A stretch of 64,000 bases of DNA from Candidatus Vogelbacteria bacterium (GTDB taxonomy: Bacteria > Patescibacteriota > Minisyncoccia > Phycocordibacterales > XYD1-FULL-46-19), in assembly GCA_016188295.1 (NCBI GenBank), contig JACPIA010000011.1:3993-67992 (forward strand). The letters are read 5' to 3'. Below, piece by piece: positions 13,968 through 37,981 of this stretch. The notes beneath the pieces are model-generated. The model saw only the letters and a program-made list of their open reading frames with translations, was not told the origin of the DNA and did no database searches. The translations under genes were made by a program, and so were the position numbers. Each line of letters opens with the position of its first letter. The first letter of the stretch is position 1.

Positions 13968-15380
13968 TTAAGAGTTATACAGTAATATCCGAATCTGATT
14001 TAACTCTTGGTTTAATAAAGAATTATTTTTAATATCGTTTTTAATCTTTTCATACGCGTGGATTACAGTGGTGTGATCACGACCACCTAATTTTTGACCA
14101 ATATAAGGGTAAGAAGTGTTAAAATCCTCACGTAAAATATACATAATTACTTGACGAGGTTTAACTACTTCTTTACGTCTAGTTTTTTCATATAACATTT
14201 TTTCATCAATATTATAAAAATCAGCAATGATCTTCATCACTTCTTTAATTGAAACTGATTTTTGGGGTTTAATTGAGTTTTTAACAATCACTTTAACTTC
14301 ATTTAAGGTTAAATCCCGTTTTTTAGCTTGTGATTGAATAATAATCGAGTTAAGAGCCCCCTCTAACTCTCGGATATTATCTTGGACAACAGAAGCTAAA
14401 TACTCAATTACCTCATCGATTGGGGTAAAACCCGTTAAAACCTTTATTTTTGAACGTAAAATAGCTAAACGTGACTCAAAATCCGGACGCGAAACATCGA
14501 CCACCATCCCCCCTTCAAAACGGGAGCGCAACCGATCTTCCAGATTAGGAATTTGTTTTGGTGGTTTATCAGAGGAAAAGATAATTTGTTTATTATTTTC
14601 ATAAAAACTATTAAATAAATGAAATAATTCTTCTTGGATCTTTTCTTTACCAGCTAAAAACTGGATGTCATCCATGATTAATAAGTCGTATTTACGATAT
14701 TTTTCTTTAAATAAGTTACCGCGATTATTTTGGAGACAACTCACAAAATCAATTAAAAAAGTCTCAGAGGTAATATAGTAAATCTTTTTTTGATCACTCA
14801 TTTTTCGGATTTGATTACCAACCGCTTGCATTAAGTGGGTTTTTCCTAATCCGGTATGACCGTAAATAAATAAAGGATTGTAATTATTACCGCCGGGATT
14901 TTTAATAATCGCTTGTGCGGCCGCACAAGCGATCTCGTTAAACGGACCAATTACTAAACTATCAAAGGTATATTTGGGGTTTAAATTACTCTCCTTGTTG
15001 ATGTAGAGCTCATTAAGGCCTAGTCCTTCATTAAAAGGGGATGTTTTGTTATAAGAGGAGTGGATTAGTCGTGGTTTATCGTCGTTTTTAGTAATCATAT
15101 ACTCAACCATTCTCACTGATGAGTAATTAGTCCGTAACGACTTAAGTATTATTTTATGATATTTATTAATTAACCAATCCCGAACAAAAGTATTGGGGAC
15201 ACTTAAGTAGATTGTCCCAGCACCATCTTGTTTAGCAATATAGGTGTTTTTAAACCAAGTGCCAAAATTTGCTTTAGAAACCTCTTGCTCAATCACCAAT
15301 AATGATTTTGACCATAAGGTATCGTTATCTGGATTCATGATGCCCTGATTATAACGACAAGCTTTAGTCAATACAAACAT
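13968..15380 (-). CDS. dnaA: Chromosomal replication initiator DnaA
   Basis: AAA+ Walker A GHTGLGKTHLMQAVGN. The C-terminal DNA-binding domain is conserved. The true start may be the internal MNPDND. Confidence 0.95.
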   Translation of the reverse strand: MFVLTKACRYNQGIMNPDNDTLWSKSLLVIEQEVSKANFGTWFKNTYIAKQDGAGTIYLSVPNTFVRDWLINKYHKIILKSLRTNYSSVRMVEYMITKNDDKPRLIHSSYNKTSPFNEGLGLNELYINKESNLNPKYTFDSLVIGPFNEIACAAAQAIIKNPGGNNYNPLFIYGHTGLGKTHLMQAVGNQIRKMSDQKKIYYITSETFLIDFVSCLQNNRGNLFKEKYRKYDLLIMDDIQFLAGKEKIQEELFHLFNSFYENNKQIIFSSDKPPKQIPNLEDRLRSRFEGGMVVDVSRPDFESRLAILRSKIKVLTGFTPIDEVIEYLASVVQDNIRELEGALNSIIIQSQAKKRDLTLNEVKVIVKNSIKPQKSVSIKEVMKIIADFYNIDEKMLYEKTRRKEVVKPRQVIMYILREDFNTSYPYIGQKLGGRDHTTVIHAYEKIKNDIKNNSLLNQELNQIRILLYNS

Positions 15381-15605: not shown

Positions 15606-15947
15606 ATGGCCCAGTTAGGCCGTCTTTCTCGCGAGTTGATTACACAAGTACTATCTCAAGGGGTCTCAGTTAGATCACCTTATTTTTTAGTCAAAATCGC
15701 TAAATTGAATCAATTATTACCTAATACTACTGGTTTGGCGGTAATAGTACCAGCTAAGGTGTTTAAACAAGCGGTAGTCCGTAATCGGGTTAAACGACAA
15801 ATCAGAGGCTGTTTAATTAAATTAAAAAGTAAGTTAAAGCCTGGTTATGGAACAGTGTTTTTTGGCCAAGTTGGTATAATTAAAGTGTCTCCTTCAGTAT
15901 TATTTAAGGAAATAACTAAAGCTCTACATGATCTCATCACTCTTTAA
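15606..15947 (+). CDS. rnpA: Ribonuclease P protein component
   Basis: Small basic protein in the conserved rpmH-rnpA-yidC arrangement. Confidence 0.8.
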   Translation: MAQLGRLSRELITQVLSQGVSVRSPYFLVKIAKLNQLLPNTTGLAVIVPAKVFKQAVVRNRVKRQIRGCLIKLKSKLKPGYGTVFFGQVGIIKVSPSVLFKEITKALHDLITL

Positions 15948-16638
15948 TAGTCTTTTGGTTACTCCGTTTTATAATATATTAATTATTTTGACGGGCATAA
16001 TCCCAGGGGCGGATATTGGAGTAGCGATCGTTATTTTAACTATTTTAGTTAAAATTCTTCTTTTGCCGTTATATCAACAATCACTTAAAACTCAAAAAGC
16101 TTTAAAGAAGATTGAGCCGGAATTAACTCAAATCAAAGAGAAATATAAAGACAATAAAGTTGAGCAAACTCGTTTAATTTTAGAGTTATACCAAAAATAC
16201 CAAATTCATCCCCTTTCTAGTGTCTTAATGGTTTTTATCCAAATACCGATTATTTTAGCTTTGTTTTTTGTCTTTCGTGATAGTTTGACGACCACTGGAC
16301 ACACTCTTTACTTTTTTGTGATTAAACCGGAGATTATCAGTACTCACTTTTTAGGTCTAATTGATATCACCACTAAAAGTGTATGGTTTGCCGGTTTAAC
16401 CGCTTTAACCCAAGGGATTTATTTATGGCAAACAGTCCCTAAGCCAGAAAAAAAGGAGTTAGGTCAATCATGGCAAAAAGACTTTCAACACGGGATGTCG
16501 CTCCAAATGCGCTATGGCGCGCCAGTTTTAATCTTTTTTGTTAGTTGGGGTTTTCCAATCGCTGTTTCACTTTACTGGATTACTAGTAATATATTTGCCT
16601 CCGGTTTTGAGTTGATTAAAAAACAGTTTGAAGATTAG
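15928..16638 (+). CDS. yidC: Membrane protein insertase YidC (short form)
   Basis: Multi-TM protein following rnpA. Conserved YidC/Oxa1 core. Confidence 0.85.
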   Translation: MISSLFNSLLVTPFYNILIILTGIIPGADIGVAIVILTILVKILLLPLYQQSLKTQKALKKIEPELTQIKEKYKDNKVEQTRLILELYQKYQIHPLSSVLMVFIQIPIILALFFVFRDSLTTTGHTLYFFVIKPEIISTHFLGLIDITTKSVWFAGLTALTQGIYLWQTVPKPEKKELGQSWQKDFQHGMSLQMRYGAPVLIFFVSWGFPIAVSLYWITSNIFASGFELIKKQFED

Positions 16639-17851
16639 CTCGCCATAATTTAGCATCGGATTTATTGATAAAATAAAGATATTTTTTACTTTGATCTAGG
16701 AAGGGGCTAATGCCATCAATAGTCAAGTTTAGACTGGTCGGATTAATTAAAATATCACTGTTACCGCTAGTAATATTTATAGCTTGCAGATTGTCACTAA
16801 AGGTAATCAAGCCTTGATACCAGCTCTCAGGGTAGTTGTTGGTTGGAATGATTTGAGGGATAAAACACCAAATAGTATCTCCTTTAGGCCAAAAACATTT
16901 CTCGGGTAAGGTGATACTCGCTAAAACCACTACTTGTTTGGTTACTAAATTAAATAAATAAGTGGAAATAGAGCCAAAACGAGCGGTATTGTAAATAAAA
17001 CGTTCACCATTAAGCTCAGGACTTAAACTAATACCCGTTGAATTACCGACTAAACGCTCAAGGGTTTTAGTTTTTAAATTTAGACTATAAACCACACTCG
17101 GCATTGAGGAATCTGCTTTGGTCGCTAAGTACAAATTATCAACACTACCCCACCAGACGCGCCAGTCCGGGTAATTTGAGGTCCAAACTAGGGCGCGGCT
17201 GGTACCATCGGGTTTGCTAACATAACCAGCCACCTTGGTACCATTTTGCTCTAAGCTGAAGATGGTTTTGTGATCAGGAGCAGGTGTAATACTATTGATA
17301 TTATTAGCTAATTTAATTGAATTAGTAGTAGGTTCGGTACTAGTAGCGAATAAATCTTTGTTATTAATAACTACTCGGTACCAACCATTATTAGTTTCTT
17401 GACTAGTTTGAATATAAAAATAAGTGTGGTTGGTATTTTGGGCCCAAGTGGCCGTAATGGCTGGGGCTAAGGTGGCGGCGCTTAAGCGGGTGACCTCGCC
17501 TGTAAGAGGATTTAAACGGTAAATGTGACCGGTGGCGCGCTCAATATAAACAATATTAGAACTGGTGCCGGTGTTAATCCAATCAGCAAAAGCGATTGGT
17601 TCCTTAGTGATAACACTCAAAGCTTGGTCCGGTTGATTATTAGTGTTGCTAAATAAATCACCGGTATCAGTTTGATTCACTACCGAGTCGATAAAATTAG
17701 AGACGGTATTGCCAGCCCGCGGAAAAAAAGTTTGGCTGATGGGTATCGGAGTACCATCAACAGCGATAGTACCAAACCAACCTCTCCCCCACCATAAGAT
17801 GCCTAAAGTGATTAAAAGTGAGATTAAAATAATGATTAGTATTTTTTTCAT
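16616..17851 (-). CDS. Secreted/anchored beta-propeller-like protein (hypothetical); last gene of the T4SS-like operon
   Basis: N-terminal signal anchor MKKILIIILISLLITLGILWW. Repetitive beta-rich sequence. Its 3' end overlaps yidC convergently. Confidence 0.5.
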   Translation of the reverse strand: MKKILIIILISLLITLGILWWGRGWFGTIAVDGTPIPISQTFFPRAGNTVSNFIDSVVNQTDTGDLFSNTNNQPDQALSVITKEPIAFADWINTGTSSNIVYIERATGHIYRLNPLTGEVTRLSAATLAPAITATWAQNTNHTYFYIQTSQETNNGWYRVVINNKDLFATSTEPTTNSIKLANNINSITPAPDHKTIFSLEQNGTKVAGYVSKPDGTSRALVWTSNYPDWRVWWGSVDNLYLATKADSSMPSVVYSLNLKTKTLERLVGNSTGISLSPELNGERFIYNTARFGSISTYLFNLVTKQVVVLASITLPEKCFWPKGDTIWCFIPQIIPTNNYPESWYQGLITFSDNLQAINITSGNSDILINPTSLNLTIDGISPFLDQSKKYLYFINKSDAKLWRANLQTVF

Positions 17852-17858
17852 AGACTAA

Positions 17859-18884
17859 CTAAAAATGATTTTTAAAGGAATTAATATCATTTCTAAGGGG
17901 ATTGGTTAGTGCTTCGATATGATAATGAGGGCCACTACCACCATATTGTCCTCGAGTTTCGTCTAATACTGTAATTGAGTCTCTGGAAAAACCATAACGA
18001 TTACGAAAATCAGTTTGATTTAAATTTTGATAATCTTGATAGAATCGGATTCCCGCATCATTGCTCCGAATATCAATTGCATATCCATTATAATGACTAC
18101 TACCTCCGCTATGGCCAGTTACTTCTGATCCGCCAGTAATTACTAATGATTCACTGACTCCATTATTTTGTAGGCCTAAATTTATCCCATTAGCCACCCA
18201 GACCGTTTCATTAGTCCACCCGCCAACACAAGTGGTCGGACAAGGATTGTTGATCATTACTCCATTTGGTCCCAAAACATCACTTCTAATCACACTTTCT
18301 CGCTGGTTGACATCCGTTAGGTTATTAACCTTAGCAACTTGCTCGAATATTTTTTGAGGGACACCAGTAAAATCAGATGTTACCGCATTGATTGGCGTTA
18401 TGGTGTGATTAGGGTCATTGCCATTATTGGTACCGGTGTTGTATCCTAGTCCGCCACTACCGGAACCACCAAAAGTGCCGGTAGTGGCGGGGGTGCGAGT
18501 AATAGTAAAATTAAAATCCAGTAATTTAGGATTGATAGTGTAAAGGAGGGTGTAAGCGCCAATAGCGATCGCCAAGCCCCATAGAGCATTAGTCCACATA
18601 CTCTCAGCCTCGGAGAGGGCACCCGGAGCGTAGCTAACAATGTAATACACCCCACTTAAGACCAACATAAATATTGCCAAACTAACAGCAACCACGAAGG
18701 CCATATTAAATAATTCTTTAGCATAAGTGACAAAATCAATCGCCACATTATTTTCAGTTCGGCCTATTATTTGCGGTTCAAGTAAAATATAGTCGGAGTT
18801 TTGAGCTAAGACGGTTACGCTTTGACTGGTGGTAATAATTAAAACTAGGCTACAGATGACGATTATTAGAAAGTGTTTAGTCAT
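17859..18884 (-). CDS. Membrane-anchored peptidoglycan peptidase (M15/VanY-like C-terminal domain) with signal peptide and two TM helices; candidate T4SS-associated cell-wall hydrolase
   Basis: Signal peptide plus two hydrophobic helices. The C-terminal domain has SxHxxGxAxD (SGGSSHYNGYAIDI) and a His motif (GPHYHIE), as in M15 zinc peptidases. Confidence 0.5.
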   Translation of the reverse strand: MTKHFLIIVICSLVLIITTSQSVTVLAQNSDYILLEPQIIGRTENNVAIDFVTYAKELFNMAFVVAVSLAIFMLVLSGVYYIVSYAPGALSEAESMWTNALWGLAIAIGAYTLLYTINPKLLDFNFTITRTPATTGTFGGSGSGGLGYNTGTNNGNDPNHTITPINAVTSDFTGVPQKIFEQVAKVNNLTDVNQRESVIRSDVLGPNGVMINNPCPTTCVGGWTNETVWVANGINLGLQNNGVSESLVITGGSEVTGHSGGSSHYNGYAIDIRSNDAGIRFYQDYQNLNQTDFRNRYGFSRDSITVLDETRGQYGGSGPHYHIEALTNPLRNDINSFKNHF

Positions 18885-18887
18885 AGT

Positions 18888-20261
18888 TTAAAAATTATCA
18901 CTCAGATCACCTAAAGTGACGCCTAATAACATTTTAGCAGATTGAAAGAGGCTGTCGGGGTTGTTAATATGCACTTCTAAATTAGCCACACCAGTTGAAC
19001 GACTGTTCTCAACTCCTAAACTAGGGCGATTATTACCAATCATCTCACCATTGAGGAACCAATTGTAATTTAAACCACCATCAATCACTAAATTTTGAGG
19101 AAAAAAGTACGGTACCACCCTAATAATTGATTGATTTTTAGTGAGAGTAAAGTTGGTTTGGAGAGCTTGAGCGTAATTGGGCCCAGTCAAAGCGCTCTCT
19201 TCATAAAACAACAATCGGGGTTTAGTAATGGGAATTAAAATAGTGTTATTAGCTCGGAGACTGCCATCGCGGTTCTCGACTGACACTGTGATTTCTTTAG
19301 TTCCGCCAATTGGCGCCTTAAAAGTATAAGTATCTTTACCAAGACCAGAAGATAAAGTCATAGTTTTACCATCATCGCTCCAGTTATAAACTAATTCTGT
19401 GGGCGGTAATTGACGCTTAGTTCGATCAATTAAGATCGGTAGGGCGGTCACTTGGCCAACGGATTCCAAGCTAATTGGCTTACCACCTAAATAGCCAGGT
19501 GGAGTGTAAGTGTCACCACGCCAGATCAAATCTACCTGAGTCGGGATAATCGAGATCGTTACTGTTTTAGTCGAGCTATTAACTGGTATGATTTGAGCTT
19601 TAACTATTACTGGGACACCAATTTTACCGGTTGTCAGACTCAAATGAGAATCGTTATTATTCAGGATTTTTTTGCCATCAATTTGCCAATTAACCTGCGA
19701 ACGCTCAAGGTCAAAAGAGTAACTGGTTAAATCAATAGTGGTTTGGGTGGCTGGTCCGGGGTCACGTGGAGTAATTCGGATCGTTAAGTCCGGAGTGGTG
19801 ATGATATTAGAATCTGCTAACACACTACTAACAGGCAGTAAACAAAGTAAAACAATCGCCACTTTTTTGATAATTTCTCTACCAATCATTTTGAGTTTAA
19901 CTGGGATTCGATTAGTTGGGTTCGCTGGAGCGGGATTAGCTTTTTCTCGATCTTCTTGGTCGGCTTGACGGATGGTTAAGTAAGTGCCGATTAAAAACCA
20001 AGGTAAAAAATTTAATATCGGCACTGCTTCCGCGAACCATGTACCAACGGTTTTTTTAAGCTGTCTAGTGCCGAATAATTTAACACTATTAAGTAAACAG
20101 ATAGAGCCAAAAATTAGATAATAAATTACAGATACCACAGTATTAATTATAGTACCAATCACCAATAACAGTAAAATAATTTGAATAATATCAGCCAAAG
20201 TCGCCACGGTGTAAAGAGTTATTCGGGTTAGCAAACTTAAACGATATTGAACCGGAGACAT
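18888..20261 (-). CDS. Membrane protein with N-terminal TM helices and extracellular beta-rich (Ig-like) region; hypothetical T4SS component
   Basis: 457 aa with N-terminal hydrophobic helices. The remainder is predicted extracytoplasmic. In the operon between the VirB4 genes and the hydrolase. Confidence 0.45.
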   Translation of the reverse strand: MSPVQYRLSLLTRITLYTVATLADIIQIILLLLVIGTIINTVVSVIYYLIFGSICLLNSVKLFGTRQLKKTVGTWFAEAVPILNFLPWFLIGTYLTIRQADQEDREKANPAPANPTNRIPVKLKMIGREIIKKVAIVLLCLLPVSSVLADSNIITTPDLTIRITPRDPGPATQTTIDLTSYSFDLERSQVNWQIDGKKILNNNDSHLSLTTGKIGVPVIVKAQIIPVNSSTKTVTISIIPTQVDLIWRGDTYTPPGYLGGKPISLESVGQVTALPILIDRTKRQLPPTELVYNWSDDGKTMTLSSGLGKDTYTFKAPIGGTKEITVSVENRDGSLRANNTILIPITKPRLLFYEESALTGPNYAQALQTNFTLTKNQSIIRVVPYFFPQNLVIDGGLNYNWFLNGEMIGNNRPSLGVENSRSTGVANLEVHINNPDSLFQSAKMLLGVTLGDLSDNF

Positions 20262-20266
20262 AATAT

Positions 20267-22078
20267 TTACTGGCTGGTGGCTAAATCAACCTTTGATTGT
20301 TTGATCGCTAAGAGTTGTGACGGGTCCGAGGTGATGATCTGATCTTCGGTATAGGAGGCAATAATCTTAATGGCTACGTGTTTGAGGCCGGCAAAAAAAA
20401 TTCCTTCTCCCACATTAGACTCTAAGAGCAAGAATTTTTCCTCATCGGTTAAATTAAAAGTTTTTTGGACTAAATCAATGGAAGCTGGTGATTGCTTCAG
20501 TAATAATTGGATCGAAGAGTTAGTGATAATCGGTAAGCCATAAGGTGATTTAAGGAAGTCACCGACATCTTGAGTAATAGTAGCAATCCCTAAATAGTAT
20601 TTACGTCCGCGTTTAACCAAGGAAAAAAGGAACGAAGCGGTATCCTCCGTCTTCATCATCCACCATGCCTCGTCCACCACCATTAAGCGCTTTTTCAGAT
20701 TGCGACGGACGGCATTCCAAATATGATGCATCACCACATACATGGCTACTGGTTTAAGTTCATCCTCCATGTCTCGCACCGAGAAGACGACAAACTTTTT
20801 ATTAATATCCACATTGGTCGGCCGATTAATAAAACCAGACCATGAGCCTTGAGTGTATTTGAGCAAGCGTTGGGCCAACGATTCCCCGCCTTCCATTCCC
20901 GCAAGCACCAGCTCCAAGTCAGACAATAGCGGGGCTGGCTTGTTTGAAAAATCAGTATCCGGAGTAATATCTTTAAGGGCGTAAGTCTCACTAATAGCAC
21001 TATCAATAATCGAATCTTCTTCCGGAGTCAGGCCACCCAACATAATCCGGAACAAGCCCACTAAGTTGATAATATTGGAGCGCAAAATATCGGCTGGCGA
21101 TTCATCATCACGAGGGATCGGTAAATCAAACGGATTGATATGGTGCTCGGAAGTAAGTGAAATATTAAAATAACGTCCACCGACCGCCTCGCTTAAAAAC
21201 TCATACTCCCGCTCGGGATCGATGACAATCACATCAGTTTCAAACATTAAACTGCGCAAAATCTCAAGTTTAGTAGTGTAGGATTTACCGGCGCCCGATT
21301 TGGCAAAAATGACCGAGTTATAGTTTTCCAGTGAAAAACGATCAAACAAGACCAGCGAAGCGTTGTGACGATTAACGCCATAGAGAATCCCTTGATTAGA
21401 AGTAAGATCAAAAGAAATAAACGGGAACAGACTGGAAAGAGGTGACGAATTTAATTTGGAATTGATATTAAGCAAATCAAGACCAAGAGGAACCACACTC
21501 TTAAAACCATCTTCTTGTCGGAGAAAAGCCGGCTTTAAGTAAATTAATTTAGAATCTAAAATCGATTTAATGGTATTTTCCGTTTTAGATAATTCTTCCT
21601 CGGTATCCTCATAAATAGTGATGTAGAGACCCACGGAAAAAAGTTTTTCCCGAGCTTGTTGGAGTTGGTCGCGCAGGCTCTCGATGTCGCGATAAGCGAC
21701 ATCGAGTACGGGATCACGAACCAACCCCTTTTCTTCTCTAATCTGGACTTGACTTTGGACTTCAGCCACTTTTCTTTGTAAGTTGCGCAAAGCGCCAGCG
21801 GTATCGATCGGATGGACATAAATCGAGACATCAAACACTTTATCAAGATTGATGATTGGTGAAAACCAACCTTCACTTAAAAAGCGCGGGTATGAGATGA
21901 CAAAAAACGTACGCGCCACCTTTTCCCCCAAGTTAATGCTTTGGGAACTAATTTGCAGTGCCGCCGGAGCGATAATATCTTTTAACTCTAAGATCCCAGC
22001 CTGATATACATCGGCCGGTAAAATTGGTAAGACCGAGGTGTCGGTAACCGAGTTTAAAGTTTTTCTAAATAAAGCCAT
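20267..22078 (-). CDS. VirB4/TrbE-family T4SS ATPase, C-terminal ATPase part (split gene)
   Basis: Walker A AKSGAGKSY and Walker B MVVDEAWWMM (the DEAW motif typical of VirB4). 603 aa. Begins 6 nt after the stop of the upstream N-terminal part. Confidence 0.75.
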   Translation of the reverse strand: MALFRKTLNSVTDTSVLPILPADVYQAGILELKDIIAPAALQISSQSINLGEKVARTFFVISYPRFLSEGWFSPIINLDKVFDVSIYVHPIDTAGALRNLQRKVAEVQSQVQIREEKGLVRDPVLDVAYRDIESLRDQLQQAREKLFSVGLYITIYEDTEEELSKTENTIKSILDSKLIYLKPAFLRQEDGFKSVVPLGLDLLNINSKLNSSPLSSLFPFISFDLTSNQGILYGVNRHNASLVLFDRFSLENYNSVIFAKSGAGKSYTTKLEILRSLMFETDVIVIDPEREYEFLSEAVGGRYFNISLTSEHHINPFDLPIPRDDESPADILRSNIINLVGLFRIMLGGLTPEEDSIIDSAISETYALKDITPDTDFSNKPAPLLSDLELVLAGMEGGESLAQRLLKYTQGSWSGFINRPTNVDINKKFVVFSVRDMEDELKPVAMYVVMHHIWNAVRRNLKKRLMVVDEAWWMMKTEDTASFLFSLVKRGRKYYLGIATITQDVGDFLKSPYGLPIITNSSIQLLLKQSPASIDLVQKTFNLTDEEKFLLLESNVGEGIFFAGLKHVAIKIIASYTEDQIITSDPSQLLAIKQSKVDLATSQ

Positions 22079-22084
22079 ATCTTA

Positions 22085-22708
22085 TTATACCGTCTCAGGG
22101 ATATTAACCTCGCCGGGATTAAAAGCCTTGAAGTAAAGCTCGACCAGTTCTTCGGTGCCCAAAAGCTCGACGCGGACCCCCAAGCGTCCCAAACCTTGAC
22201 GGACTACGTCGACTCTCTGCTCTAATTGATTGCGCTCCTCTTCAAACGCCAGGGTCTCCACCGTCTTAGCTGGTTGGCGTTTGAATAATTTAATCCACCA
22301 GCCTTGGCGATTTTGAATAATCGGTGGAGTGTAAGGGATGACCACAAAAAAACTTTTGGTCATAATATTATTATTCTCGGTAAAACTTTTAATAAATTCG
22401 ATATACTCTTGTGTCTGGACTTTAAGCAAGTCATTGGTTTGGCTTTTTAAGCGTTCTTCTAAAATACTGATGTAGGGGCGGATATCTAATCGGCGCGATT
22501 GAACAAATATTTGCAAGTAAAAATCCAGCGAATTAAGAAAGTTTTGGTATTGGAGCAATAGGCCTTGTTGTTCGTCACGGGACTTTAAAGCAAAATTAAT
22601 AGATGAGGCAATAAGTACAGCCCGTAGCGATCCATCTTTTAGTACCACGACGCCGTCGCGGACTTCTTCGATAGGGACAAATGATTGAGTGCTTTTAGGA
22701 GTGGTCAT
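22085..22708 (-). CDS. VirB4-family ATPase, N-terminal part (split gene)
   Basis: 207 aa. The N-terminal region VPIEEVRDGVVVLKDGSLRAVL resembles the VirB4 N-terminus. Ends with tandem stops TAA TAA. Combined with the next ORF it is about 810 aa, a typical VirB4 length. Confidence 0.6.
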   Translation of the reverse strand: MTTPKSTQSFVPIEEVRDGVVVLKDGSLRAVLIASSINFALKSRDEQQGLLLQYQNFLNSLDFYLQIFVQSRRLDIRPYISILEERLKSQTNDLLKVQTQEYIEFIKSFTENNNIMTKSFFVVIPYTPPIIQNRQGWWIKLFKRQPAKTVETLAFEEERNQLEQRVDVVRQGLGRLGVRVELLGTEELVELYFKAFNPGEVNIPETV

Positions 22709-22712
22709 ATTA

Positions 22713-23114
22713 TTATTTAATCTTTTCCGTGATATCCAAACTCCAAGCTAAGTCGTGTAATTTGCTTTTTGATAATTTAGGGATGGTGGGCGCTAGTGGT
22801 TTAGTAGTTATTTGAGACGTTATTGTTTTGGGCGCCTCTTTTTTCCAGATGTAATTTTTACGAGCCAAGGCAAAATAGAGACCAGCTTCGAGTATCGCAA
22901 TGAAGGGCTGGTTATTGTACTTAAAAAAAGCCAGCGCCAGCCCTAGTCCGGCCACTGCCAGCATCGGGATAATTTTAATCGCAAAAGGTAAGGGTAAAGT
23001 ATAAACCAAAAAGGCCAATCCTCCCCCACCAGTCAAATAGATAAATTGTTTAAAAGTAAGGGGGCCAAAGACCTGATCCTCGACCTCGATAAATTGTGGG
23101 ACTTGAAAGTTCAT
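22713..23114 (-). CDS. VirB3-like small two-TM membrane protein
   Basis: 133 aa, two hydrophobic helices, immediately upstream of VirB4 as in T4SS loci. Confidence 0.4.
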   Translation of the reverse strand: MNFQVPQFIEVEDQVFGPLTFKQFIYLTGGGGLAFLVYTLPLPFAIKIIPMLAVAGLGLALAFFKYNNQPFIAILEAGLYFALARKNYIWKKEAPKTITSQITTKPLAPTIPKLSKSKLHDLAWSLDITEKIK

Positions 23115-23120
23115 AATTGT

Positions 23121-23567
23121 TTACTCGATCGATTCGCGATACGGATCATTTACCTGACGCACGGTCTCGGTGCGAGCCAGTGAGATTGGATGAGACAAGC
23201 GCTCTCGGAAAATAGGCTGATTAGGTGCGGGGACATTTGTTTTGGGTTCCGTTAAAGCTAAGAGCGACTCTCTAATTTTAGCAAAAATCTCAGCATTTAC
23301 CTCACTGGTAACTACCCGGGCCTCATCAGGGGTAAAACCGTACTCCTCACGGAGATTAATCGGTAAGCGATTAGGGTGGATTAAACCAAGTAAAATAAGC
23401 CCAACCTCATCAGCTAATCCTCCAATTTTGTCTAAATGAAGATTATGACGTAAGCCAATGGATTTAATGGTTTTGGCGGTGTCTAGAGAGTTAAAAACCT
23501 CCTGAATCTCCTCCGGTAATAATTTAAATTGGTTATTCAATTCTTCTGGAGTGTAAGTTTTAGACAT
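23121..23567 (-). CDS. Hypothetical cytoplasmic protein of the T4SS-like operon
   Basis: 148 aa with no TM segment. Position is conserved between the VirB6-like and VirB3-like genes. Confidence 0.4.
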   Translation of the reverse strand: MSKTYTPEELNNQFKLLPEEIQEVFNSLDTAKTIKSIGLRHNLHLDKIGGLADEVGLILLGLIHPNRLPINLREEYGFTPDEARVVTSEVNAEIFAKIRESLLALTEPKTNVPAPNQPIFRERLSHPISLARTETVRQVNDPYRESIE

Positions 23568-23569
23568 AG

Positions 23570-26524
23570 TTACATTATTAATCCAGTAGTCTGGTCAACA
23601 TAAGCCGGGTTATTTATAAATTGATCAAATTGACCATTAACATTAGCGCGCAGAGGAGCGGTCTGGTTTATTGCCGCTCTTTGTAATTCTTGTTTAATCC
23701 GCAATATCACATCACCATTCATTTTGCGGCCAATATTTTTAAAGTCATCAATCGACAAGCCCGCTTGGTCAATCTTAGTTAACATTTGCGCGTTCTGAGT
23801 AAATAAGTTAACTGCTTCTGATTTATTGCCAGACACTAGGTTTGGTAGATGATCATTAATCGCTCCAACTAAAGTTTGTCGATCAGCGGTAGTGGCTTGA
23901 GCAATACTTCTTAATTCGGACAATGCTTGCTGAACTTGCGCTGGAGTAATTGGTGGAGTTTGGCCACTAGTCTGATTACTTCCCCCGGCACGATCGCTAC
24001 CATCTCTAATTGGAGTGGTATTAGTATTACCGATTTGATTAGTGTTACCAGTCGGATTAGTTTCTGTTGTTTGTGTAGTTGAAGTTGGTTTAGGAATACC
24101 CCAACTGGCTCTAGTGTTGCCGGCTCCAATTTCCTGATAAAGGGCATTATTTTGGTTTTGGATATAGTTACGCATCTGTTCCAATTGACTATGGTTGAGC
24201 TTATCACGAATGGCATTAATCTCACTGTAGTTTAGGGATTTTGCAACCACTGGATTAATTAGCGTGTCGATCTTAAAGTCTTTAAGATCGTTATTATTAA
24301 AGCCAGCCAAGGTCTCATTAACCGCTTTTTCGGTGGCATCAATTTTATCTTGAGTGGCCTTGTTGGCAACATTTTTACCATTTACCTTAACAACATTACC
24401 ACTGCTATCTTTTGCGTGTTCGTCTTTAATATTTCCTGCTTCATCAAATAGATCATTTACTGATTTAGTGGCGTTTTCAATAGTTTTGCCCGCTTTATCA
24501 ATTTTATCTTTTTTATCTTTCTTCTTCTTGTCCTCCTCCTCTTTTTCAACGTCTTTTAATTTTTTAGCATCTTCCGCCCGCTCTTTACCCGCTTTGCCTA
24601 AAAAGCCAATCCCTAAACCACTAGTAGTAGCAACAGTGTCGCTCGCATAACGAAGAGGGTGTAATATATTTTCCTTGATTGGTTTGGTGGTAGAAATAAC
24701 TTTTTTACCTAGATCGGTTTTAGCCAAATAATCACCGACTGGTTTTATTTTTTTATACGTTGTATCCACTAGTCGACCACCCGCTCCCCCAAGGAATGTT
24801 TTATCAGTTTTTGAGGCGACCGCACCAATTGCTCGGCCACCATAACCACCTGTTTTTCTAATCGTACCCCAGGCGGCCCCAGCACCCAAAGCGGTGATTC
24901 CCCCTGCTAGTGCCATGGCGCCAGTCGCGCCAATACCACCAATCTTTTTGGCAATGACTAGTGAATAGACCATAAAGCCGATTAAAATGATATAAGCAAT
25001 CAAGAGACGGAAAAAATCAAAACTAACACTACCAGTGCCATCAGCATCAACACGGGGCGCGCCTGTATTACTAATTGTAATAGCTTGAGCAATTTGAATG
25101 GTGATATAAAACATAATCATAAACACCGGCAACCAGACCGTTTCAGAAATTAACTTGTTCCACCAACCACCAGTTTCTTTTTTAAGAAAGTCTGGTAAAA
25201 TCATCGAACCAAAGGCAATTGGTGAGGTCATGATTAACATCAACAGGGTGATAATTCTCACTATCAACATAAAAGCCACCGTTAATAATACAAAGGCGGC
25301 TACTAACACTAGAATAATCTGCACAAATGAATCAAAAATGATCCGATAAGCTTCATATCGGCTAGTATTTTCATTTAGTCCAAATTGATTATTGGTATCG
25401 CCATTATAATCATTAAGACCCAGTGGCATTTTATCGATTAGTGCTCTAACTAAGTCAGGAGCCTTGGTAATGCTGGTATTGTTTGTTTGGCCGTTGATCG
25501 GAGTCATTCCACGATAAAAGGTTACCGATATCACATTGGTGGCATCAATGATTATTTTAGGGAAAATGGCGCTGAAGTTGATCAGCAGAGCGGCAATAAT
25601 GATATTAGTGATCATTTTTTTAGCATTAACTTCCGATCGGCGTAAAATGGTGCCAATGGCCACGTAAAGTAAAATAAAAATAAAAGCGATATTAAACAAA
25701 TCACGAATGATGGTCCAACCGATATTGATCGCGGTACCCAATGGGAAATATAATTTGTCACTGTTTCCTCCGGAAGTTTTAAGATACTCATGAAAATCTA
25801 TCACTGATAATTTTAATATGGCGTTAAATAATTCATTGGCCAAATACAGGATCCAAGCAAAAACAGATAAAACTATACGCATTAGGTAAGCCGTACCATA
25901 GAGTAGACAATCTTGGATCGTCCAACTAAGTATTCCGGAACACCGAAGCATATTATCCTTATTCCGGATCTCGGTTTCGTGATCACTAATACTACTAGTA
26001 AGGGTAGTCTGGTGATTAGTGGCAATTTGACGCTCGTTTTCCAAGAATCGTATTTGATTTTGCAGATACTCATTTTCTACCGCATCTTCGCTAGTCGATA
26101 AATCTAAACCAATTTGTTGATCCCTTAAGTTTTGGATTTGTTCGTCATAATTAGCCCATCCAACATAATCTCTGATTGCGTCTCTTTGGCGATAAAAGTT
26201 ACTGATGCCAGCACTGGTTGGGTATTTTTCATTAAGCCAATTATTAAAACTAGTGATAGTTTGACGAGAGCAACCATCCCGCCCAGTGTTTTGAGTGTCC
26301 CGACAAAATCTATCTAAATAATCTCGCCCATAATCTTGCCCAACCACCTGACTAGTGGTGTAATCGATCATTCCAGTACCACCTTGAGCATAAATAATTT
26401 GTGGTAGAGTTATTAAAAACAACACCATCAACAACCGTAATAACTGGCTATTTTTAATAGTAAAAAACTCTTTCATCTTACAATAGTAGTTTCGACTTCG
26501 GCGGATTGGGTACCGTTGGTGCAA
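23570..26524 (-). CDS. VirB6/TrbL-like polytopic membrane protein with long low-complexity C-terminal tail
   Basis: 984 aa. Signal peptide, about 200-aa extracytoplasmic domain, many TM helices, then an about 400-aa G/K/D/E/T/N-rich tail. Confidence 0.45.
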   Translation of the reverse strand: MHQRYPIRRSRNYYCKMKEFFTIKNSQLLRLLMVLFLITLPQIIYAQGGTGMIDYTTSQVVGQDYGRDYLDRFCRDTQNTGRDGCSRQTITSFNNWLNEKYPTSAGISNFYRQRDAIRDYVGWANYDEQIQNLRDQQIGLDLSTSEDAVENEYLQNQIRFLENERQIATNHQTTLTSSISDHETEIRNKDNMLRCSGILSWTIQDCLLYGTAYLMRIVLSVFAWILYLANELFNAILKLSVIDFHEYLKTSGGNSDKLYFPLGTAINIGWTIIRDLFNIAFIFILLYVAIGTILRRSEVNAKKMITNIIIAALLINFSAIFPKIIIDATNVISVTFYRGMTPINGQTNNTSITKAPDLVRALIDKMPLGLNDYNGDTNNQFGLNENTSRYEAYRIIFDSFVQIILVLVAAFVLLTVAFMLIVRIITLLMLIMTSPIAFGSMILPDFLKKETGGWWNKLISETVWLPVFMIMFYITIQIAQAITISNTGAPRVDADGTGSVSFDFFRLLIAYIILIGFMVYSLVIAKKIGGIGATGAMALAGGITALGAGAAWGTIRKTGGYGGRAIGAVASKTDKTFLGGAGGRLVDTTYKKIKPVGDYLAKTDLGKKVISTTKPIKENILHPLRYASDTVATTSGLGIGFLGKAGKERAEDAKKLKDVEKEEEDKKKKDKKDKIDKAGKTIENATKSVNDLFDEAGNIKDEHAKDSSGNVVKVNGKNVANKATQDKIDATEKAVNETLAGFNNNDLKDFKIDTLINPVVAKSLNYSEINAIRDKLNHSQLEQMRNYIQNQNNALYQEIGAGNTRASWGIPKPTSTTQTTETNPTGNTNQIGNTNTTPIRDGSDRAGGSNQTSGQTPPITPAQVQQALSELRSIAQATTADRQTLVGAINDHLPNLVSGNKSEAVNLFTQNAQMLTKIDQAGLSIDDFKNIGRKMNGDVILRIKQELQRAAINQTAPLRANVNGQFDQFINNPAYVDQTTGLIM

Positions 26525-29433
26525 CGGAGACGATACACTGGCGGTGCGGTGGTAATATCAATTTGACCAGTGCCAATCGAGGTTAATGAGGTGTAAGTAA
26601 AGCGGTACAAAGCAAAAGTGGGGTTGGCGCCAATTGCCGCTTTTAGTTTATCAATCATTGTGCTTACAGTATCGTTCTCGGCAACAGTGACACTAACACT
26701 GCTCGGAGTGCCACCGGCCGCCAGTTTAATAGTTATGACATCTCCCGTCACAATATCACTAGTCTGTAATGCCAAAGAGGCATTACCCCTTAGGCGATCA
26801 CCACTAATGCTTGGGGCAATAGTTAAATTAGACTCAGTTGTGTTTCGGGTTCGGGTAAAAGCGACCTCAAAAGTAAAAGGGAATTTAATACTCAATGAGC
26901 CATAGCGTTCAACTTCTTCACCACTGCGTTTAAGGACTTGGAGCGTGCCAGTGGCGCTTCCGGCCGAGAGCCAAGGATTGCCGGCCACACAACTGTCACC
27001 AATGATTAGCGACCAGTTGATTGTGGCGGTATTAGGCGCTGTACCGTTGGTAATATTACCTAAACTAGGTGAGGTAAAACGGATGCGAGCGGTGGGAGGA
27101 ATCAGGTTTAATAAATCACCAGGGTTGATATTAGGTAAATTACCACCCAGATTCGAACCACCATTGCCACCACCGAGGTGGAAGAAATTAATTAGGCCAT
27201 TGGCACGAGAGGCCCCCGGAGCGTTGAGAGTTTGGATGAGTTCAGTATTTGGTTCGGCGCCTTTAACTAAGTCGGTTTGTTCATCAACGCTGACTAATTT
27301 TTCAATCCGAGCTTCGTTAACCGACTCTAAATTAGCGCCAATAATTCGACCCGGGGTAACGGTGATCCATTTTACACAATTATTCTCTTGGTCGTACTTG
27401 TTACACTCTTTTTTAGGGGCAATACCTTGGCCGGCCAAGTATTCATCACGGGCATTTTGCTCGGCCGCCGCTTGACGCTGGCTTTGGATTGCTAAATTGT
27501 TTAACAGCGAGGAACTCGGATTGTTATTTTTAGTAAAATCGTGGAATTTGAGAAAGCGATCCCAAAAGGTTGCGGAGTCAAGCTGGTCCGGATTATTGAT
27601 TAGTTCTTGATATTCACTTCGACTTAAAGTTGATTGGTAAGGGTCATTCAACTCATCACCCTTTAGCGTTTTAAGGGTCTGTTTGCGAAAGGTGTCGCTC
27701 GAGCGTTCCAATTCAGCTAAGCCGATTTTCATAGCCTCCTCGCGCGCCTCCCTCACATAAGTGGCCGGATCTTTAACTAATTCATTTTTCTTAATAAAAT
27801 TAACCACTTGATTACCAATTTTATCGAGATTTTTAGCTGACTGTTCCGAAGCTTTGCGATCATCCACTAATTCTTTTTTCTGCATATCGGCGGCGATTTT
27901 TTTAGCTGTCTCGGTATCGGCACAATTTTTGTTTTCGAGATCTCTGATTTTTTTAGTATCGATACTGATGCCACTCTGATCATTAACCAATGCGTCCGTC
28001 GGTACTCGGGCGAATGGTAGAATGTTTATTACTTGATCAATTGCACCATTAACAAAATCATTTACTCGTTGAGTAATACGATTGGAGAGTTCGGTGATGG
28101 GACTTAATACTCGATCCATCATATCGCTTAAACCATCAGCAAAGGGTTGGACCACACTATCAACCAAGCCATCCATAGCGGAGGTAAAGGGCTCGGTAAT
28201 GCTATTAACTAAGCCACCAGTGATTGCTACGATCGGTTCAGTTATTAAATTGACCATACCGCCAATCGCGGCGTTTATTGGGTTAGCGACGGCCGAGAGG
28301 GCGGTGGTCATCGTATCGGAGACCGCTTGGGAGATTGGAGCACTAATTTGAGCCACTACTTCATTAATAGTGTTGTCCAAGCTGGTTAAGGCGATATCGG
28401 AGAGTTCGTCACCCAAGTCGGCCAGCTCATCGCTTAGCGAATCTGCCAATTGATTGCTAGCCGAATTTATTGATTCTCTAAATTCTTGTTGAGAAAAAAT
28501 GATGTTTAATTGCTGGGACAAAATATCCTCCATTTGGCCGGCGATTTCATTGCTAAATTGACCAAACATCGGATTATTTTCAATAGAATCTCCGATTAAG
28601 TTAATTGATCCGTTTAATAATTCATCTCGGAATTGTCCGGCATTGCCTATTAAAATACCTAATTGATTGCGACCTTGAGCTGAAAGAGGTTCGTCATTCA
28701 AATCATCAATGGTGTCGTCAATAGCATCATTAAACTCATCTAACAATTCACCACGAATGTCGGTCGTTAAACCACTGTTCGGATCACGCAGGGCTCCTTG
28801 CAAGATACCTGGTCCCAAGGTACGGAAGTCGTTACTTAAAACTCGCGGTAATTCTCGTTGTAGGCCGTTAAGCAAAATAATCGGTAACTGTTGTTGAATA
28901 ATCGCTCTAATAATGTCTGGGCCAATGTCTTGCGGATCAACCCCTTGATTAATTAAACCGGCAATTTGCGTGGTTAGTTCACGGGTAATACCCTCTGTCA
29001 CTACTTGATTAACCACATCAGGCATACGCTCATTTAAAATACCAGCAAATTGTTCCGGTAATTGCTCTAATAAAGCACCTTCGATAATTTCCGGTAAGCG
29101 CTCTTGGAGCACCCCTTGTAATTTACCAGCCAAACCATCAAAATATTTACTACCCTGACATTTTTGTTTGTCTTTACTGCGATTTTGCTGGAGCTGGCTG
29201 GAGGCTTGATTGCTACCGCTGTTGTAATTATCGGGAACCAATTCCCGATCCTGATTAGGATCGCCATCATAGGTGATATTGTCTCCAGTAACGGTATTAT
29301 TCCAAACACCAGAATCTTCAGTTTCTACAAACACTGCCGCTTGAGTAATGACTGGCAACAAATTTACTACCAACAACAGCCAAGCGATATTAAATTTAAT
29401 TTTGTGAGGTTGAAGTGGCATAAGTAGTATCAT
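26473..29433 (-). CDS. Large secreted repeat protein (986 aa), candidate surface/adhesin component of the T4SS-like locus
   Basis: Signal peptide (LLLVVNLLPVITQAAVF). Internal degenerate repeats (GxVNxITEPxxxA). Overlaps neighbours by 52 nt and 38 nt. Confidence 0.5.
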   Translation of the reverse strand: MILLMPLQPHKIKFNIAWLLLVVNLLPVITQAAVFVETEDSGVWNNTVTGDNITYDGDPNQDRELVPDNYNSGSNQASSQLQQNRSKDKQKCQGSKYFDGLAGKLQGVLQERLPEIIEGALLEQLPEQFAGILNERMPDVVNQVVTEGITRELTTQIAGLINQGVDPQDIGPDIIRAIIQQQLPIILLNGLQRELPRVLSNDFRTLGPGILQGALRDPNSGLTTDIRGELLDEFNDAIDDTIDDLNDEPLSAQGRNQLGILIGNAGQFRDELLNGSINLIGDSIENNPMFGQFSNEIAGQMEDILSQQLNIIFSQQEFRESINSASNQLADSLSDELADLGDELSDIALTSLDNTINEVVAQISAPISQAVSDTMTTALSAVANPINAAIGGMVNLITEPIVAITGGLVNSITEPFTSAMDGLVDSVVQPFADGLSDMMDRVLSPITELSNRITQRVNDFVNGAIDQVINILPFARVPTDALVNDQSGISIDTKKIRDLENKNCADTETAKKIAADMQKKELVDDRKASEQSAKNLDKIGNQVVNFIKKNELVKDPATYVREAREEAMKIGLAELERSSDTFRKQTLKTLKGDELNDPYQSTLSRSEYQELINNPDQLDSATFWDRFLKFHDFTKNNNPSSSLLNNLAIQSQRQAAAEQNARDEYLAGQGIAPKKECNKYDQENNCVKWITVTPGRIIGANLESVNEARIEKLVSVDEQTDLVKGAEPNTELIQTLNAPGASRANGLINFFHLGGGNGGSNLGGNLPNINPGDLLNLIPPTARIRFTSPSLGNITNGTAPNTATINWSLIIGDSCVAGNPWLSAGSATGTLQVLKRSGEEVERYGSLSIKFPFTFEVAFTRTRNTTESNLTIAPSISGDRLRGNASLALQTSDIVTGDVITIKLAAGGTPSSVSVTVAENDTVSTMIDKLKAAIGANPTFALYRFTYTSLTSIGTGQIDITTAPPVYRLRCTNGTQSAEVETTIVR

Positions 29434-30112: not shown

Positions 30113-30193
30113 TCTCTATTATAATATGCTTTAAACTAGTTTGGTCCTTAATTTAAGCGATATTAGTGGATAAACTTATGTTATAGTGGCAAT

Positions 30194-30814: not shown

Positions 30815-31193
30815 ATTATTGATTGCAGTAATAATGTTAAGTACCTTAGTGTTGCCTAATGCTTATGCAATCGGTAATCCCTCGGTATTGGTAGCGTCTA
30901 ATTTTGGCGGTCGAATTTTAGCTACTATCCCCTGTACTTGTACTTTTAATTTAAAATTAATTTTAAGTCCAGTGGCACCTACTTTACCTGTAGAGGTAAT
31001 CTTTCAACCGGGGATTAGTATTTTGTATCGTTACGGGATGTTAGTACCAACCGCTTGGGTGTTAGGGCGGACCATCGGTTCGTCTACGTGTTGGGTCGGT
31101 TTAATCCCGTTTTGTGTACCAGTACCGAGTGTGGAGGGGGGAATTGTAAGCCCATTGATTCATATGGTGGGCACTTCTTTGCCAGGAATATAG
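30798..31193 (+). CDS. Small secreted hydrophobic Cys-containing protein; candidate pilin-like subunit
   Basis: Signal peptide (LVLPNAYA), then an about 105-aa mature part with two hydrophobic segments and 6 Cys. Confidence 0.4.
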   Translation: MNHKFKLLIAVIMLSTLVLPNAYAIGNPSVLVASNFGGRILATIPCTCTFNLKLILSPVAPTLPVEVIFQPGISILYRYGMLVPTAWVLGRTIGSSTCWVGLIPFCVPVPSVEGGIVSPLIHMVGTSLPGI

Positions 31194-35605: not shown

Positions 35606-37981
35606 ATGGATCCATTTTTGTTGACGATCGGTGCCTTAGGTACGGTATTTTTAGTGTCAGGAGTGGCGCTCTTAGTCATGTATATTTTGCGTCAGCGTAA
35701 AATTGAGTCGCTCAATTTAAAATTATTATTAATTACGGTACCGCGCCCGGAGGAGAAAGAAGGCTCTAATCAACTCGATGCGATTGCTTCCACTGAGCAA
35801 TTGATGGTCGCTTTGGCCGGGATTAGCCGCTCGTTTGTCTTTGAGGTAGTGGTCCAAAATGCCGGAGAGGAAATTTTATTTTATTTAGCGGTACCGCGCT
35901 CCCAATTAACAAGTGCTAAAACACAAATCGAAGGGCTCTTCCCTCGGGCGGAGGTAACCGAGATTTCCGACTATACTATTTTCCATCCTGATGGTGGCAG
36001 TGCCGCGGCGCATTTAACTTTAACCGAAAATGAAGCTTTACCACTCCGGACTTATAAAGAAGCAGGTGTCGACACTTTTGCGGCAATTGTAAACACCTTA
36101 TCGCATCTGCGCGAGTCGGGCGATGGTGCCACTATCCAATTGGTGGTAACACCAACCGATAACAGTATCAAAAAAACTTTAGCGAAAATGGTGGAACAAT
36201 TAAAGCAGGGCAATTCCTTTTCCTCTCTGGTTAAAAAAGGTAATTTATCTTTAGAGGTGGTAGCTAAGGCGTTAATGAGTGATAAATCATCAACCAAAAA
36301 AGATAAGTCAGAAAATAAGATAGTTGATGAGGAGGCAGTCAAAGCGCTTAGTCTTAAAATGGCTAAACCCTTATTTAAGGTCAATATCCGGGTAATTACC
36401 GCCTCGGACACCACAGCCGTGGCTGAAGATTTACTGCTGGCCATTGCTGGGCAATTTAATCAATTTGCTTCACCCTATCGTAATAATTTTAAATTAGTTA
36501 AAGCTCGCCGGCCCAAAAAGTTACTCTATCAATATATCTTCCGCGAGTTTGATCCCAGCCAAGCTTTTACTTTAAATGCCGAGGAGTTGGCTAGTATTTT
36601 CCATTTACCTACCGCCACTACCGCCGGTCCGCGGATTAGTTGGCTTAATACTAAAGAGGCACCACCACCACCTAATTTACCGCGAACTGGTACTTTAATT
36701 GCCGAGAGTATTTTTAGGGGTGAGACTAAACCGGTTTATCTCTCGGATGCTGATCGCCGCCGCCACTTGTATTTGATTGGTCAGACCGGTACTGGTAAAT
36801 CGCTCTCGATGCTTAATATGATTAATCAGGATTTACTCAATGATAAGGGTTTATGTTTAATTGATCCGCATGGTGACCTAGTCGATGCCGTCCTAGAGCG
36901 TGTGCCTAAAAGTCGGATTGATGATGTGATTGTATTTAATCCCGGTGATCTGGCTCGACCACTAGGACTCAACATGCTTGAGTACAATTTTGACCGACCA
37001 GAGGAAAAAACTTTCATCGTCAACGAGATCCAATCGATTTTTAATCAGCTCTTTGATAAAGAGACAATGGGTCCGATGTTTGAGCAGTATATGAGGAATG
37101 CCCTCCTTTTATTAATGGAAGATGCCAATCCCGCCAAAGGTGGAGAGTCCGCCACTTTAATGGAAGTGTCGCGTTTATTCACCGACACCGAGTTTCGTAA
37201 TCGTAAATTGGCTCGGATCACTAATCCAAGCGTGATCGATTTTTGGACTAAAGAGGCAGTTAAGACCAGCGGGGAGCAAGGTTTGGCCAATATGACACCA
37301 TATATTACTTCAAAATTTGGTAATTTTGTGGCTAACGACTATATGCGGCCGATTATCGGTCAGCCGCAATCAGCGTTTAATTTCCGCACAGTCATGGATG
37401 AGGGTAAAATTTTGCTCGTCAATTTAGCTAAAGGTAAAATTGGCGATATTAACTCGGGGCTCTTGGGTATGATTATTACAGGTCGCCTGTTGTTAGCGGC
37501 ACTCTCTCGCTCCGATATTCCCGAAACTGAGCGCCGTGACTTTAACTTATATATTGATGAATTCCAAAACTATACCACTGACTCGATTTCGACCATCTTG
37601 TCGGAAGCGCGGAAATATCGACTTAATCTAACAATTGCTCATCAATTTATTGCCCAACTTAAAGACAATATCCGGGAATCAGTCTTTGGTAACGTTGGTT
37701 CGATTATCTCCTTTAGAGTTGGTACTCCTGATACGGAAGTATTACTTAAACAATTTGGCTCGGTATTTACCTCCCATGATTTAGTTAATAATGAGAATCG
37801 CCACGGCTTTGCTCGAATCTTAATTAATGGTGAACCAAGTATTCCTTTCTCGATCCAAGTGCCCTTGCCTAAACTCGGCTCGGTGGAAGTCAAAGATAAA
37901 CTTAAAGAACTCTCTCGCCTCACTTATGGCCGTGATTTAACAAGGATTGAAGGTGATATTTTAACTCGCCTGCGCTCATAG
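35606..37981 (+). CDS. Type IV coupling protein (VirD4/TraG/TrwB-like ATPase) with N-terminal TM
   Basis: N-terminal TM. Walker A LIGQTGTGKS, IDPHGD motif, Walker B LYIDEFQNY. 791 aa. Confidence 0.7.
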   Translation: MDPFLLTIGALGTVFLVSGVALLVMYILRQRKIESLNLKLLLITVPRPEEKEGSNQLDAIASTEQLMVALAGISRSFVFEVVVQNAGEEILFYLAVPRSQLTSAKTQIEGLFPRAEVTEISDYTIFHPDGGSAAAHLTLTENEALPLRTYKEAGVDTFAAIVNTLSHLRESGDGATIQLVVTPTDNSIKKTLAKMVEQLKQGNSFSSLVKKGNLSLEVVAKALMSDKSSTKKDKSENKIVDEEAVKALSLKMAKPLFKVNIRVITASDTTAVAEDLLLAIAGQFNQFASPYRNNFKLVKARRPKKLLYQYIFREFDPSQAFTLNAEELASIFHLPTATTAGPRISWLNTKEAPPPPNLPRTGTLIAESIFRGETKPVYLSDADRRRHLYLIGQTGTGKSLSMLNMINQDLLNDKGLCLIDPHGDLVDAVLERVPKSRIDDVIVFNPGDLARPLGLNMLEYNFDRPEEKTFIVNEIQSIFNQLFDKETMGPMFEQYMRNALLLLMEDANPAKGGESATLMEVSRLFTDTEFRNRKLARITNPSVIDFWTKEAVKTSGEQGLANMTPYITSKFGNFVANDYMRPIIGQPQSAFNFRTVMDEGKILLVNLAKGKIGDINSGLLGMIITGRLLLAALSRSDIPETERRDFNLYIDEFQNYTTDSISTILSEARKYRLNLTIAHQFIAQLKDNIRESVFGNVGSIISFRVGTPDTEVLLKQFGSVFTSHDLVNNENRHGFARILINGEPSIPFSIQVPLPKLGSVEVKDKLKELSRLTYGRDLTRIEGDILTRLRS

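Follow-up and report, generated by a model that had tools for sequence, protein, structure and literature searches.

The closest described counterparts of the locus studied here are the type IV secretion systems (T4SSs) of other Patescibacteria, in which the genes for PrgI, a TrsD homologue and the ATPase VirB4 lie together, often near dnaA (PMC12102498; Wang et al. 2023, PMC10633639). In the published text, TrsD is a component of unassigned function, remotely homologous to the VirB4 N-terminus (Quinonero-Coronel 2025, PMC12102498), and VirB4 is not called 'split'. Among the T4SS components found in Patescibacteria, TrsD was the most frequent: 2,221 of 3,035 assemblies contain a total of 2,272 homologues, and 1,664 homologues adjoin virB4. 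The S. epibionticum homologue is essential; no function is assigned (PMC12102498). Here, we analyze a matching locus, one more example of this arrangement, in a stretch of 64,000 nucleotides from a Candidatus Vogelbacteria bacterium (GenBank assembly GCA_016188295.1, contig JACPIA010000011.1, positions 3,993 to 67,992; hereafter the window), where a first-pass annotation had noticed a VirB4 ATPase encoded as two consecutive open reading frames (ORFs), here ORF A and ORF B, separated by tandem stop codons.

The locus also resembles pSK41/pGO1 of the MPF-FATA class, with a small VirB3-like protein, a protein of about 210-230 amino acids, a DUF87/VirB4 ATPase of about 600-670 amino acids, a membrane protein and a cell-wall hydrolase. 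The order in pSK41 is a small membrane protein, trsD (227 amino acids), the DUF87/TraE ATPase (672 amino acids), a membrane protein and a CHAP hydrolase. As ORF B and TraE align from residues 34 and 36 onward, respectively, pSK41 is split at the same position, although the sequence similarity of its TrsD to ORF A is remote. Plasmids of Geobacillus and Halobacillus share the split layout of pSK41, whereas a Cohnella plasmid carries the fused form. Unlike pSK41, which is a conjugative plasmid, the Vogelbacteria locus lies on the chromosome beside oriC, and no relaxase-family match was seen nearby among the window proteins scanned, a minority of the window ORFs.

Full-length VirB4 proteins, such as TrwK of R388, the Firmicutes CD1110 family and the Colwellbacteria type, are single polypeptides, whereas two are present in the Vogelbacteria locus. 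In TrwK, the segment equivalent to ORF A is built into the N-terminal domain, and in the R388 structure this domain of VirB4 touches VirB3 and VirB8 and connects the protomers (PMC12857230). The phrase 'split VirB4' was not found in the literature searched; the word TrsD is absent from the main text of Guglielmini 2014, and the homology statement is taken via PMC12102498. Considering the pSK41-type layout, the published survey and the presence of PF26593 in Pfam, the arrangement is already known, and it is ordinary for the lineage. We propose, with a probability of roughly 0.85, that this is the standard patescibacterial VirB4: a TrsD/TraD-like cistron of about 210 codons and an ATPase cistron of about 600 codons in one operon, the chains of which associate as a VirB4-like protomer.

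Two reading frames and one VirB4

The elements of the junction are:

22085..22708, minus strand: ORF A, 207 amino acids, TrsD/TraD-like, free-standing, counterpart of the VirB4 N-terminal domain over its first ~200 residues
22079..22084, minus strand: spacer TAA GAT, 6 nucleotides from the ORF A stop to the ORF B ATG, its first three bases being the second in-frame stop
20267..22078, minus strand: ORF B, 603 amino acids, the rest of VirB4, residues ~1-226 forming the latter half of the N-terminal domain, followed by the P-loop ATPase C-terminal domain

ORF A closes with GTA followed by TAA (22087-22085), TAA (22084-22082) and GAT (22081-22079), and ORF B opens with ATG at 22078. The coordinates, the 6-nucleotide spacer, the lengths of 207 and 603 amino acids and the total of about 810 given by the first-pass annotation were confirmed from the ORFs and the sequence. 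The double stop had been taken to argue against a simple frameshift; however, ORF A and ORF B share one reading frame, so a frameshift was never at issue, and the tandem stop carries no weight in this respect. It occurs at chance frequency: a second in-frame stop follows 4 of the 47 window ORFs of at least 150 amino acids, versus 6.2% expected from triplet frequencies. The PrgI ORF directly upstream of ORF A likewise ends TAA TAA, and just 5 of 78 A-type genes of relatives (see below) have a tandem stop. The feature is no hallmark of the family and not unusual in the Vogelbacteria genome.

ORF A matches VirB4 models of NCBIfam solely at their N-termini, at positions 2-119 of 752 in the CD1110 family, 101-233 of 894 in VirB4_plasma and 5-153 of 792 in TIGR00929. 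The NCBIfam TrsD/TraD model NF041427 is hit over profile positions 16-142 of 201 with 29.4 bits (E 6.1e-7, cutoff 200). ORF A falls below the membership threshold of NCBI and is a remote TrsD homologue that occupies the equivalent place in structure and synteny. A precomputed match to PF26593 ('TraC-like') exists for a protein identical to ORF A and for all of its 120 best homologues; our own Pfam scan of ORF A returned no family, presumably because the copy scanned is without the PF26593 model. The ORF A profile retrieved 3,286 representatives at 50% clustering.

The fold gives a clear assignment. While a sequence search of ORF A against PDB chains yielded chance matches only (all E at least 0.06), an AlphaFold2 model (48-sequence alignment; predicted local distance difference test (pLDDT) 83.8, predicted template modelling score (pTM) 0.70) retrieved R388 TrwK/VirB4 chains as the 14 best PDB matches, with probability 1.0, TMq 0.48-0.59 and about 215 columns; matches below those 14 are at chance level. 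As a separate observation, many TrsD-like proteins of other lineages (300-440 amino acids; for example P0281, P0300 and P0327) carry long low-complexity C-terminal tails rich in Pro, Gln, Ala and Thr beyond the conserved module of about 205 residues. ORF A is without such a tail.

ORF B scores 377.8 bits against NCBIfam NF045971 (CD1110-family VirB4), above the curated cutoff of 325, over profile positions 185-733 of 752. It stays under the cutoffs of TIGR00929 (115 versus 643 bits) and of the remaining VirB4 models. P-loop_TraG, AAA_10 and DUF87 of Pfam are found in ORF B, and a match to the crystal structure 4ag5 of the VirB4 C-terminal domain covers its residues 227-584 (E 6e-44). Alignment with the fused Cohnella VirB4 places a Walker A motif (GAGKS) near residue 262 and a Walker B motif (VVDEAWW) near residue 466. 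Over residues 84-200 there is also a weak match to the C-terminal end of the NCBIfam SCO6880-family model. The complete VirB4 N-terminal domain is not on the ORF B polypeptide, which starts at about profile position 185 of 752, positions 2-119 being on ORF A. Congruent with this partition, ORF A residues 2-75 correspond to residues 17-92 of the 777-residue fused VirB4 of the Cohnella plasmid, and ORF B residue 31 to residue 209. Thus, according to the profile and Cohnella alignments, the two ORFs tile one VirB4, with the break inside the N-terminal domain, and jointly they cover the full VirB4 profile and fold.

Conservation of the split, and fused and rearranged forms

Orthologous loci were compared, as the first-pass annotation had advised. 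From GTDB species representatives 80 loci were retrieved, of which 78 were informative in having enough downstream sequence. All 78 are split, with an A-type ORF of 205-225 amino acids closed by a stop and then a B-type ORF of 597-678 amino acids with its own conserved ATG. The junctions are diverse: the spacer spans -17 to +496 nucleotides (median 7.5), the relative frames 0, 1 and 2 of A versus B are represented 16, 41 and 21 times, and the A-type stop is TAA in 53, TAG in 17 and TGA in 8. The sequences on the two sides of the junction are conserved, with FNPGE at the C-terminus of ORF A, and M-x-[ILF]-[FL] followed by PILPxDIYxxGxLELxDIIAP at the N-terminus of ORF B.

The split is also present in the closest independent assemblies. 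Two Logan assemblies, built from different runs, share the junction GTA TAA TAA GAT ATG with the window, and GCA_964655995.1 has the junction GTA TAA TAG ATTGT ATG, likewise split, in a different frame. For each half, upward of 8000 homologues were scored, and lengths among the top 120 are 206-233 amino acids for A and 578-625 for B. Identity among the best matches is about 62% for ORF A and about 80% for ORF B. Between close relatives, the proportion of nonsynonymous differences (pN) is 0.03-0.09 versus a saturated synonymous proportion (pS) of 0.68-0.80, and the ratio of the corresponding substitution rates (dN/dS) comes to about 0.04 in ORF A and about 0.015 in ORF B, values that mark strong purifying selection on both genes. 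They are ancient, conserved and selected as separate genes, and together they make up one full-length VirB4. Hence, of the two options left by the first-pass annotation, a genuinely split VirB4 or a decaying gene, the data support the former and refute the latter. The accompanying view that such a split is unusual has to be revised, as it is standard in Patescibacteria, present in Gram-positive plasmids (TrsD/TraE of pSK41) and already represented in Pfam and NCBIfam.

The spacer itself hosts additional elements in some relatives. A small gene inserted between the trsD-like gene and virB4 encodes a four-helix-bundle protein of the 23S rRNA intervening-sequence type (PF05635, E down to 7.5e-38); it is bounded by imperfect inverted repeats of 30-34 nucleotides made of short motifs, and one copy, in locus L030, is disrupted. 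Some other relatives have inverted-repeat arms alone at the same A-B site, 21-40 nucleotides long and 38-74 nucleotides apart. Sites with inserted elements or inverted-repeat arms, in coordinates of the retrieved loci, are:

L022:4315-4756, L030:4619-5114, L049:4625-5045 and L054:4625-5088; also L011:4655-4759, L016:4640-4761, L074:1614-1728 and L069:4625-4726

With inserts and bare arms at one site, the A-B spacer looks like a recurrent target of small elements flanked by inverted repeats, and such elements would place a long hairpin between the trsD-like and virB4 cistrons.

Besides the split form, a fused VirB4 clade of 775-807 amino acids was detected, with at least 115 clusters from sources named Candidatus Colwellbacteria, a sister clade, and with PF26593 and the ATPase domains in one protein. 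This clade was found via a 797-residue protein (P0336) among the best 150 matches of the ORF A profile, which was then used as query; further fused members are among proteins P0391-P0509. The gene of P0336 (L089:544-2937) follows PrgI and lies next to dnaA. Paceibacteria-type lineages hence include both fused and split states; the linker of the fused form is shorter, variable and without the conserved N-terminal segment of split ORF B. An AlphaFold2 model of a natural fused homologue, based on an alignment of fused proteins (pLDDT 74, pTM 0.53), gives an alignment of 800-880 columns to full-length TrwK (E 6e-28, template modelling score 0.53), and the point equivalent to the split coincides with a local pLDDT dip, to 64-65 at residues 211-230. 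A candidate for a very recent fission, P0409 (600 amino acids, 88% identical to fused P0336), was rejected as an artefact of an N run in its scaffold.

A third arrangement is seen on the Embleya sp. plasmid NZ_CP108778.1 (L084:3123-4172), where a 349-residue 'PrgI family protein' consists of PrgI (residues 14-101) fused to the A module (residues ~127-249), followed by an XF1762-family gene and then a separate ATPase of 643 amino acids. As in the Vogelbacteria locus, the A module is apart from the ATPase; the differences are its fusion to PrgI/VirB3 and the extra gene before the ATPase. The A-B and PrgI-A fusions provide gene-fusion ('Rosetta stone') evidence for physical association of ORF A with both the ATPase and VirB3.

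The operon at the replication origin

The two ORFs are part of a larger unit, the features of which, together with neighboring genes, are:

16616..29433, minus strand: co-directional T4SS operon, ORFs of 986, 984, 148, 133 (PrgI), 207 (A), 603 (B), 457, 341 and 411 amino acids
22713..23114, minus strand: PrgI family protein, the VirB3 counterpart, 133 amino acids, Pfam PF12666 (E 1.2e-9), 4-nucleotide gap to ORF A
15928-16638, plus strand: yidC, adjoining the T4SS operon
13968-15380, minus strand: dnaA, beside the operon
12681-13781, minus strand: dnaN, beside the operon
33272-35161, minus strand: UvrD-type helicase, ~13 kb from virB4 and outside the operon
35606..37981, plus strand: VirD4/TraG-like coupling-protein homologue, 791 amino acids, Pfam T4SS-DNA_transf, TraG-D_C and TrwB_AAD_bind, ~13 kb from the operon

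Gaps of 2-7 nucleotides separate the genes at seven junctions, from the 984-residue to the 411-residue ORF, and the 6-nucleotide A-B boundary thus resembles all the others. A scan of 16000-31000 for promoters and terminators did not rise above background and showed no signal at the A-B junction. The order PrgI-A-B is repeated in the relatives L085 and L086, where the gene order of the whole operon is kept, and the PrgI order is found in L089 as well. As the operon abuts yidC, dnaA and dnaN, it is located at the replication origin, a position beside the origin and dnaA that has been reported for the T4SS locus of many Patescibacteria (PMC12102498).

Pfam scans of the remaining operon proteins gave almost no matches, and no VirB6-, VirB1- or VirB2-like role is assigned to any of them. 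The 341-residue protein (17859-18884, minus strand), two genes downstream of ORF B with the 457-residue ORF between, has an N-terminal signal-like segment and then hydrophobic helices. Its C-terminal part (SSHYNGYAIDI...HYHIE) resembles, by eye, peptidoglycan peptidases of the LAS/M15 type, with no significant Pfam match; in the Halobacillus plasmid a DD-metalloendopeptidase occupies the slot right after the ATPase. As listed, the 984-residue ORF begins with TTG at 26524 and shares 52 nucleotides (26473-26524) with the 986-residue ORF upstream of it. Judged by eye, an internal ATG (MKEFF..., about 26476), leaving an overlap of 4 nucleotides, appears to be the more likely start.

Alternative readings and significance

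How might two frames replace one? A once-continuous virB4 hit by nonsense mutations, and hence a pseudogene, would leave just what is seen in the window, two ORFs in one frame parted only by TAA TAA GAT, and fused forms of about 790 amino acids do exist in a related clade. However, the split recurs in every informative species-level relative with unrelated junctions, and also in the closest relatives; the low dN/dS values at saturated synonymous sites do not agree with decay; ORF B has its conserved ATG and N-terminal motif; and the linker of the fused forms is different and lacks that segment. We consider the probability of decay negligible. Analogously, the source being a metagenome-assembled genome, the stops could stem from an assembly or sequencing error, but the identical junction in two independent Logan assemblies, the different yet split junction in a third, and the thousands of independent assemblies that encode proteins of about 210 and about 600 amino acids leave this explanation with next to no weight. 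Programmed read-through or recoding, yielding a single VirB4 of about 810 amino acids, would be compatible with the in-frame ORFs of the window. It would nevertheless have to bypass two consecutive TAA codons, and the relatives place A and B in all three frames, overlapping by at most 17 nucleotides or up to 496 apart, sometimes with an inserted gene. With such variable frames, spacing and insertions no conserved recoding context can exist, and read-through is highly improbable. Aggregated, the conservation, the junction variation and the selection data exclude these three explanations.

The main surviving rival is that ORF A encodes a VirB4-derived but independent T4SS component, such as an adaptor, regulator or assembly factor, that forms no stable protomer, the ATPase working alone as a truncated VirB4. 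The lower conservation of ORF A than of ORF B is in line with this, as are the many family members of 300-440 amino acids, the low-complexity C-terminal extensions of which are absent from canonical VirB4. On the other hand, the natural A-B and PrgI-A fusions argue for closeness to both partners, the genes keep their order and close spacing across relatives, and the equivalent segment is integral to the N-terminal domain of canonical VirB4. We therefore regard this option as unlikely, though deserving consideration.

The preferred reading, two cistrons supplying one VirB4-like protomer, suggests the following mechanism. Both polypeptides would be made from one polycistronic mRNA, with coupled translation being probable in view of the 6-nucleotide spacer. 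The products of ORF A and ORF B are predicted to associate non-covalently, thereby rebuilding the protomer. The ORF A product may supply the membrane-proximal surface that contacts VirB3, here PrgI, and may mediate contacts between N-terminal domains; such a VirB3-facing adaptor role fits the contacts of the VirB4 N-terminal domain in R388 (PMC12857230).

Several points weigh against this proposal. The A-B complex is a prediction from sequence, gene fusions and models of single chains. No recognisable Shine-Dalgarno sequence precedes ORF B in the junction sequence, and translational coupling is consequently suggested only by the spacing. The similarity of ORF A to staphylococcal TrsD is weak, not only in the NF041427 score of 29.4 bits against a cutoff of 200, but also in an hhalign comparison with pSK41 TrsD (E 0.004, probability 8%). 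Moreover, the fused-form model, with its pTM of 0.53, is of moderate quality. Finally, TrsD homologues of Gracilibacteria are mostly not beside virB4 (PMC12102498), and co-location of TrsD and virB4 is hence not universal.

As a discovery the arrangement has little weight, since Pfam and NCBIfam already list it, a survey has covered it in about 3,000 Patescibacteria genomes, and the TrsD homologue is reported to be essential in the one genetically tractable species. Its value lies in annotation: the 207-residue 'hypothetical protein' is best read as a detached VirB4 N-terminal module and the 603-residue 'DUF87 protein' an N-terminally short VirB4, rather than a pseudogene pair. Furthermore, the fused, split and PrgI-fused variants give a concrete hypothesis for TrsD, formally without assigned function, as an adaptor from VirB3 to the motor. 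Tentatively, and with less than even confidence, we suggest that the first ~200 residues of VirB4 may represent an autonomous, evolutionarily mobile adaptor module that is free in most Paceibacteria and pSK41-type plasmids, joined to the motor in canonical and Colwellbacteria-type VirB4, or joined to VirB3/PrgI in an Embleya plasmid, in which case the split would answer a functional requirement for assembling or regulating the link between motor and membrane in trans, rather than being a neutral fission. If so, the fused and split clades within one class would constitute a natural experiment on the VirB4 N-terminal domain.

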